Of a stretch of DNA of 64,000 nucleotides, positions 60,088-61,233 are shown one piece after another; positions within the stretch are counted from its first letter, which is position 1, and the number at the start of each line of letters is the position of its first letter. The notes under the pieces are model-generated. The model was not told the origin of the DNA. It saw nothing but the letters and a program-made list of their open reading frames with translations, and made no database searches. The position numbers and the translations under genes were made by a program. Origin of the DNA: Escherichia coli (GTDB lineage: Bacteria > Pseudomonadota > Gammaproteobacteria > Enterobacterales > Enterobacteriaceae); assembly GCF_024223415.1 (NCBI RefSeq), contig NZ_CP100500.1; one strand, given 5' to 3'.

Positions 60088-60360
60088 ATGGCACTCCCCC
60101 GTATTACCCAAAAAGAGATGACTGAACGCGAGCAGCGTGAACTTAAAACACTGCTGGATCGGGCGCGGATTGCGCATGGTCGCGTACTGACCAACTCCGA
60201 AACCAACAGCATTAAGAAAGATTACATCGATAAATTAATGGTTGAGCGTGAGGCTGAAGCAAAAAAAGCCCGCCAATTGAAGAAAAAGCAGGCTTATAAA
60301 CCGGATCCTGAAGCGTCATTTAGCTGGTCAGCAAATACGTCGACGCGCGGCAGGCGCTGA
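60088..60360 (+). CDS. yjbD: DUF3811 small protein YjbD
   Basis: 90-aa basic ORF; its stop abuts the rluF stop. Confidence 0.85.
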   Translation: MALPRITQKEMTEREQRELKTLLDRARIAHGRVLTNSETNSIKKDYIDKLMVEREAEAKKARQLKKKQAYKPDPEASFSWSANTSTRGRR

Positions 60361-61233
60361 TTAGCGCCCCTTCTTTTTACGCCCCGGCGAGGTAAAACGC
60401 TTACCGTTGGACGCCGGGCGACCGCCTTTTTCCGCCGTTTTTTCCATCTTAACGACTGGACGTTTGATGCCCGCCGTTTTCGGTTTAGCCTTCGCTTTAG
60501 GTTTTGCCTCGGAAGAGGAATTTTCAATGAGCTTAAAGAGGTCGATTAACTCATCGTCGGTTAAATCGCGCCACTCCCCCAGTGGAATGCCGCTTAAGCT
60601 GACGTTCATAATGCGCGTACGTTCCAGCTTTTTCACTTCATAGCCGAAATGCTCGCACATGCGCCGGATCTGACGGTTCAGCCCCTGCACCAGGGTAATG
60701 CGGAAGACAAACGGCGCTTCTTTTTTGACTTTGCACTTTTTAGTCACCGTCCCGAGGATCGGCACCCCCGCCCCCATACCACGAATAAATTCATCGGTAA
60801 TCGGTTTATCGACCGTCACCAGATACTCTTTCTCATGATCGTTACCCGCACGGAGGATCTTATTCACCAGATCGCCGTGATTGGTGAGGAAAATCAGCCC
60901 CTGGGAGTCTTTATCCAGGCGGCCAATCGGGAACACGCGTTTGCTGTGGTTAACGAAATCGACAATGTTATCGCGCTCGCCATCTTCGGTGGTGCTGACA
61001 ATGCCTACGGGCTTGTTCAGGGCGATAAGTACCAAATCTTCGGCTTCCCGAGGCTCAATCAACTGACCGTTTACTTTCACAACGTCGCCGGGTTTCACCT
61101 GATCGCCAATGGTGGCTCGCTTGCCATTAAGGAACACATTGCCTTGCTCAATATAGCGATCCGCTTCGCGGCGTGAGCAAATTCCGCTTTCGCTGATGTA
61201 TTTATTTAAACGGACTGATGAGTCGGGCAGCAT
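60361..61233 (-). CDS. rluF: 23S rRNA pseudouridine(2604) synthase RluF
   Basis: 290-aa ORF with S4 domain, RluA/RsuA-family catalytic Asp motif and Lys/Arg-rich C-terminal tail. Confidence 0.95.

Follow-up and report, generated by a model that had tools for sequence, protein, structure and literature searches.

The convergent genes yjbD and rluF of Escherichia coli abut at their stop codons within a palindrome: a conserved, compact gene boundary with a terminator-like element in the coding sequence

The small housekeeping genes yjbD and rluF meet tail to tail in an ordinary, already known convergent layout, which is real and conserved and is not a new regulatory device. Within the 64,000-nucleotide stretch of E. 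coli DNA analysed here (the window), we hold with moderate confidence to an account in which the boundary is that of a maximally compacted convergent pair, with a weak terminator-like signal embedded in coding sequence, clean-up by Rho of the polymerases that pass it and a 3′ overlap of the transcripts without regulatory role. The locus falls in an already described class, that of convergent genes which abut or overlap, with which it shares two real, conserved opposite-strand genes whose 3′ ends meet without a spacer. Other genera show its sister state, the classic shared-stop overlap of 4 nt through TTAA. It differs from the overlapping pairs in that the coding sequences of the window touch without overlapping (0 nt) and the junction is a perfect palindrome. 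Zero spacing is not exceptional as a class, since 75 convergent E. coli gene pairs have truly overlapping coding sequences (PMC4161906). The coordinates of the features discussed below are collected in Table 1.

Table 1. Features of the yjbD/rluF boundary, in window coordinates
Feature	Position	Strand	Basis
yjbD CDS (DUF3811, 90 aa)	60088..60360	+	ORF list, RefSeq annotation of identical strain, Pfam
rluF CDS (23S rRNA pseudouridine-2604 synthase, 290 aa)	60361..61233	-	ORF list, annotation, Pfam
16-nt palindrome GGCGCT GATT AGCGCC	60353..60368	both	terminator-like scan match and folding
T-rich tract CCTTCTTTTT	60369..60378	+	directly 3′ of the hairpin; complement of the final Lys-Lys-Lys-Gly codons of rluF
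Empty site of the 132-bp BoxC/TMECO repeat	60359..60362	both	alignment against a K-12-like strain (copy at L002:3562-3693)
Predicted yjbD-sense read-through zone, antisense to the rluF 3′ end	60361..60496	+	limit transferred from K-12 4231091(-)
Predicted rluF-sense read-through zone, antisense to most of yjbD	60150..60360	-	limit transferred from K-12 4231569(+)

Positions 60340-60379 of the window read tcgacgcgcg gcaggcgctg attagcgccc cttcttttta, or, by codon from 60349 to 60378, GGC AGG CGC TGA / TTA GCG CCC CTT CTT TTT. The TGA of yjbD (60358-60360) and the TAA of rluF, which appears as TTA on the plus strand (60361-60363), have no base between them. The first-pass annotation had named the two genes, given them as convergent and described their stops as abutting. 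Names and orientation agree with the ORF list, the RefSeq annotation of an identical strain and Pfam, and the contact of the stops recurs in the annotation of E. coli SCU-316, to which the segment is 100% identical and in which the RefSeq yjbD and rluF coding sequences adjoin (L001: 3561, 3562). YjbD matches the Pfam DUF3811/YjbD family over its full length (E=1e-42, profile positions 1-88 of 88), and RluF carries the S4 and PseudoU_synth_2 domains. An annotation artefact was ruled out, as both ORFs match their families through the C-terminus and the stop positions are conserved. The base after each stop is U or C and complements the last base of the partner stop; U just after a stop is a favourable termination context in E. 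coli, and here U or C in this position is a by-product of the abutting stops.

Each gene contributes its stop and the two sense codons before it to the palindrome at the junction. The 6-bp stem is built from AGG CGC of yjbD and GGG CGC of rluF, and the two stop codons supply the loop and the closing pair. Five of the six stem pairs are G-C and the loop is a tetraloop, the RNA of the yjbD strand folding at -10.3 kcal/mol, and the rluF strand forms a hairpin of 7 bp (-11.7 kcal/mol). Much of this geometry follows from the proteins: four of the six pairs are set by the encoded residues (RR-stop on one side, GR-stop on the other) or by the T that opens every stop codon, and the junction is palindromic because both proteins end in Arg (CGC) after a G-rich codon and all stops begin with T.

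The earlier annotation also stated that no intergenic terminator separates the genes. This stands, since there is no intergenic DNA, although the statement overlooked the terminator-like hairpin and CCTTCTTTTT that lie in coding sequence on the yjbD strand. As in intrinsic terminators, a GC-rich stem-loop is followed there by a T-rich run, and the junction appears to resemble such a terminator without fully qualifying as one: it has a short stem of 6 bp and an interrupted tract with CC at its start, it lies wholly in coding sequence, its helix lacks covariation and the hairpin is not conserved within Escherichia. In the U-tract test, CCUUCUUUUU passed a loose terminator scan, yet it opens with CC and is interrupted by a C. 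On the rluF strand the tail of the hairpin is UGCCGCGCGUC, with 2 U of 11 and hence no U-tract. Terminator-like matches in the region did not exceed those in shuffled sequence (2 found by a simple scan, 2.6 expected), and the single match in an Rfam scan of 59700-61400, to RNase P, was at noise level (14 bits, where the gathering score is 100). The hairpin and tract on the yjbD strand look like a weak, allele-dependent terminator embedded in coding sequence, which could limit yjbD read-through to about 15-18 nt.

The contact between the two genes extends far beyond E. coli. A survey of one genome per species with YjbD yielded 80 Enterobacteriaceae loci, in each of which both stops were located. 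The spacing is 0 nt in 31 of them (Escherichia, Pseudocitrobacter, Enterobacter, Lelliottia, Leclercia, Trabulsiella, Yokenella and others), while 44 show a 4-nt overlap of the coding sequences through TTAA or a variant (Citrobacter, Salmonella, Klebsiella, Raoultella, Kluyvera, Phytobacter and others). Two loci, from two genera, have yjbD without an adjoining rluF, and three have apparent spacers of 12, 125 and 192 nt, the last of which (L061) has the junction sequence of a normal -4 type and probably reflects a frameshift in the rluF of a draft assembly. Because the spacing is 0 or -4 in 75 of the 78 species in which yjbD and rluF are adjacent, the tail-to-tail contact is old, stable and beyond chance. 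The two main junction states differ by a single TTAA unit (CG-TTAA-TTAA-CG versus CG-TTAA-CG), and 4-nt slippage would interconvert them leaving both proteins unchanged. The T-tract is kept in all 75 abutting or overlapping loci, with 7-8 T of 11 in the type 0 and 6-7 in the type -4 junctions.

Some features of codon usage at the junction were also recorded across these species. The stop codons in the loop occur in all combinations across genera. The second-last codon of yjbD (60352-60354) is a rare Arg codon, AGG or AGA, in almost all 80 species, and that of rluF (60367-60369) is the minor Gly codon GGG, again in almost all of them. The AGR codon has probably been retained because only a specific transversion links AGR to CGN; of the readings considered, only the hairpin hypothesis would account for the retention of GGG.

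The question of selection on the hairpin itself received different answers in different groups. Among 30 distinct type 0 junctions, 91% of the cells pair and three pairs are invariant, and covariation in the helix was absent (score 0.056 versus 0.049 in shuffled alignments, 70 of 500 of which attained the observed score). Of the 20 species that make up an Enterobacter-like clade, 18 have the perfect hairpin of -10.3 or -10.4 kcal/mol and 19 the CTTTCTTTTT tract, both elements occurring together in 18 of the 20 species though the loop stop codons vary freely. Across the hairpin and T-tract, this clade shows no variation at five of six synonymous sites, versus one invariant site among 23 elsewhere (Fisher p=3e-4), these 23 being synonymous sites of neighbouring codons whose amino acid is invariant. 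When the same peptides were recoded synonymously, with assumed codon frequencies, a hairpin of -10 kcal/mol or below arose in only 1-3% of the random trials. The Escherichia/Pseudocitrobacter group, on the other hand, has none of its six junction synonymous sites invariant and energies from 0 to -10.3 kcal/mol, and the median hairpin energy of the -4 genera is -2.5 kcal/mol. As far as it can be read from nucleotide patterns, selection at the nucleotide level is likely in at least the Enterobacter-like clade, and function is therefore likely there as well.

These patterns raise the possibility, less probable in our judgement than the account given at the outset, that the stops and last codons of both genes constitute a selected RNA element, either a terminator or a 3′-stabilising structure, with the stop pair as its loop and the Lys codons of RluF as its U-tract. 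Purifying selection would then act on the synonymous sites, the rare AGG and GGG included, in part of the Enterobacteriaceae, a proposition that we treat as equally tentative. So is its extension to E. coli, where this selection might be relaxed, or the element replaced by a BoxC hairpin inserted in the loop. The support for a selected hairpin comes from the synonymous-site pattern of one clade. A stricter version takes the site as a selected and efficient intrinsic terminator of yjbD, with the stops as loop, the KKK codons as U-tract and a transcript overlap of about 15-18 nt. We regard it as a possible but minority explanation: the site fits the simple terminator pattern, and the Enterobacter-like hairpins, their invariant sites and the rarity of so stable a hairpin among recoded sequences all argue for it, whereas the lack of excess over shuffles, the CC-initial interrupted tract, the short stem without covariation and the degradation of the stem in most -4 genera and in 26% of E. 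coli genomes argue against it.

This last figure derives from allele counts in 5426 complete E. coli genomes, which revealed three main forms of the junction. The window-type junction occurs in 2047 genomes. A B2-type allele, TTAACGCC, which carries G60364A, is present in 1402 (26%) and introduces a C.A mismatch in the stem, lowering its stability to -5.7 kcal/mol. In 1774 genomes (about 33%), K-12 among them, a full copy of a 132-bp insert lies exactly between the two stops; a split match revealing the insert was likewise obtained in 19 of 60 evenly sampled genomes. Hence the abutting layout is not universal in E. coli, as K-12 has an intergenic region here formed by the BoxC insert, with the rluF and yjbD ends of MG1655 at 4231226 and 4231359.

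The insert is one of a dispersed family that occupies a median of 14 places in each genome, and it has a core, CCCTCGCCCCTTCGGG(G/A)A(G/A)AGGGTTAGGGTGAGGGG, that agrees with the type A motif published for the BoxC/PIT/TMECO elements (PMC4666352). The surroundings of these elements vary from strain to strain (Holder et al. 2015, PMC4666352), and the locus conforms to the family in that the K-12 allele carries a copy and that presence or absence by strain is typical of it; the window differs in being the empty site, and a local blastn search found the BoxC core CCCTC..GGGTTAGGGTGAGGG nowhere in the whole window. Earlier work cited by the same study found neither promoter nor terminator activity for BoxC/PIT/TMECO (PMC4666352). 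The right end of the insert nevertheless rebuilds a stem beside the T-tract (GGCGTT AATC AGCGCC, -7.9 kcal/mol), a point in favour of a selected terminator of yjbD.

Strains bearing the insert have TAA...TCA at the stops versus TGA/TTA in the window, that is, the reverse complement of the central hexamer, and uninterrupted TAATCA occurs in the cryptic Escherichia lineages L012, L013 and L015. The exchange between TGATTA and TAATCA (60358-60363) swaps which gene ends in TGA and which in TAA, and looks like an inversion of the hairpin loop or two symmetric substitutions. The insert itself occurs in two versions, about 6-7% divergent, sits in the loop of the stop-codon palindrome and is flanked by an imperfect 10-bp direct repeat, GGCG(C/T)TAATC; the target duplication could be either TAAT(C) or the 10-bp GGCGYTAATC.

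The available transcript data come from K-12. Term-seq of cells in LB at OD 0.4 placed a 3′ end at 4231270(-) (Adams et al. 2021, PMC7815308), which lies 89 nt past the yjbD stop, inside the insert and 44 nt short of rluF, and falls 2 nt after the BoxC hairpin (-19.7 kcal/mol). The regenerated hairpin has no curated Term-seq peak in these data (PMC7815308), and the Rho-sensitive region of this strand lies deeper in rluF, both of which weigh against an efficient terminator at the stop codons. From K-12 DirectRNA-seq with and without bicyclomycin, the same study reported sensitive Rho regions at 4231091(-), antisense to rluF (score 4.27, p=2.8e-13), and at 4231569(+), antisense to yjbD (score 3.15, p=1.1e-5; PMC7815308, supplement 2). 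Taken at face value, each strand of K-12 is transcribed into the opposite gene and stopped there by Rho, despite the insert.

The boundary would share with Rho-dependent termination the bicyclomycin-sensitive regions that lie within the opposite gene on either strand (Adams et al. 2021, PMC7815308), whereas the measurement is of low resolution and concerns the K-12 insert allele, not the insert-free one. The regions are coarse because they were computed from 800-nt windows (PMC7815308), and they could also reflect antisense RNAs from internal or other promoters and not convergent read-through, 51.5% of Rho regions genome-wide being antisense to genes (PMC7815308). Our transfer of their limits to the window was arithmetic, the gene lengths being identical and the K-12 locus having 132 extra bp, and the resulting read-through zones should be taken as predictions. 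In 80-nt antisense windows the C/G ratio was 1.0-1.4 on the plus and 1.1-1.2 on the minus strand, a mild C>G bias that is not diagnostic of Rho. Overlapping 3′ ends are plausible because the K-12 Rho regions lie inside the opposite gene on both strands. The first-pass annotation had deduced an overlap of the two transcripts from the adjoining stops; some overlap is indeed logically unavoidable, and the K-12 bicyclomycin-sensitive regions fit it (PMC7815308).

Together, these observations allow us to sketch how the compacted boundary might have arisen and how it might work. Loss of all spacer DNA would have left the two stops adjacent, and this compact state would be stable because any further loss damages the conserved basic C-termini (YjbD ...RGRR, RluF ...KKKGR). 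The weak hairpin and U-run would release some yjbD polymerases after roughly 15-18 nt of rluF; the rluF strand has no U-tract, and all of its transcription would run into yjbD. Transcription past the junction would be untranslated, and Rho would end it before more than about 130-210 nt of the opposite gene had been copied. Degradation by 3′ exonucleases probably then shortens the RNAs as far as the junction hairpin, a step proposed by analogy with the K-12 end just after the BoxC hairpin. The mature mRNAs would then overlap by roughly, or at least, the hairpin, and nascent or untrimmed RNA by up to a few hundred nucleotides. Nothing in the analysis points to a regulatory role for this overlap.

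Another way to end both transcripts is the collision mechanism proposed from SEnd-seq for many convergent E. coli pairs (bioRxiv 10.1101/2022.10.23.513370). Applied here, the palindrome would act as a bidirectional terminator whose hairpin pauses both polymerases until head-on and trailing collisions release them. The likeness lies in a hairpin that can form on both transcripts (-10.3 and -11.7 kcal/mol) exactly at the convergent boundary, and the model needs only a hairpin and no canonical terminator (bioRxiv 10.1101/2022.10.23.513370). The junction differs from the bidirectional terminators in being embedded in coding sequence instead of intergenic and in lacking their A-tract/T-tract symmetry, the plus strand upstream of the stem being GACGCGCGGCA, with no A-tract that mirrors the T-tract. 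Moreover, the model works best for highly expressed pairs (bioRxiv 10.1101/2022.10.23.513370) and nothing here suggests high expression, the K-12 Rho-sensitive signal lies well past the junction on both strands, and neither gene name occurred in the supplementary tables searched. We therefore judge collision-driven release at this site improbable.

Least probable of all, in our estimation, is that the 3′ overlap serves antisense or transcriptional interference that reciprocally couples yjbD and rluF expression, a use to which the earlier annotation had pointed. Such interference is possible in principle, given that the overlap is unavoidable, that the K-12 Rho-sensitive antisense signal covers most of yjbD and that the tight juxtaposition is conserved across genera, but it is purely conjectural and unsupported here. 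A third of E. coli genomes tolerate separation of the two genes by the 132-bp insertion, which puts the main yjbD end outside rluF, and two genera keep yjbD without rluF beside it. No functional link between the two proteins is known, and a literature search retrieved no paper naming yjbD and rluF together, its matches to yjbD and terminator concerning Bacillus spx. Neither gene is present in the supplements of the TERMITe paper.

The direct importance of the locus is small, and its value lies in being a clean natural case of compaction at a convergent boundary, where all 3′-end signals have been forced into the genes themselves. Within E. coli there are three natural alleles side by side, one with the perfect hairpin, one with a mismatched hairpin and one with the 132-bp BoxC insertion, and they would let embedded hairpins be compared for termination versus mRNA stabilisation. 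K-12 is atypical at this site, and K-12 3′-end maps misdescribe the locus in the two thirds of E. coli that are without the insert.

Several further observations concern the sequences flanking the pair. About 30 nt upstream of the yjbD start, nearly all of the 80 loci retain CCGTACACTG (60050-60059 in the window, with TACACT at 60053-60058) amid intergenic sequence that is otherwise not conserved; the motif was not reported by the consensus scan and is probably the -10 element of a promoter belonging to yjbD itself. A 14-codon ORF, MNIISSARKRIPVH, with a Shine-Dalgarno-like AAGAGAAGG, occupies 60017-60061 upstream of yjbD. It was considered as a leader peptide and is probably not one, being identical among E. 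coli strains but missing or interrupted in E. albertii and in other genera. In Enterobacter-like species (L064, L066, L072, L075-L083 and others) the yjbD 5′ UTR contains, about 35 nt before the ATG, a perfect inverted repeat, CTGAAGCCTC...(A)GGAGGCTTCAG, which is absent from Escherichia and the window; it may be a translational control hairpin, as it would sequester the Shine-Dalgarno sequence. Just past the lysC stop (59835), a terminator-like hairpin formed by GTATGGCCTGGAAGC...CGGGCCGTAT and followed by TGATTTTCTT (59841-59882) suggests separate transcription units for lysC and yjbD. Downstream of rluF, at about 61581-62528 (L001:4782-5729), lies a sorbose-operon-type sugar-binding regulator, which the annotation of the identical SCU-316 gives as a pseudogene interrupted by an internal stop. 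K-12 has pepE in its place, and the rluF flank is thus a strain-variable junction.
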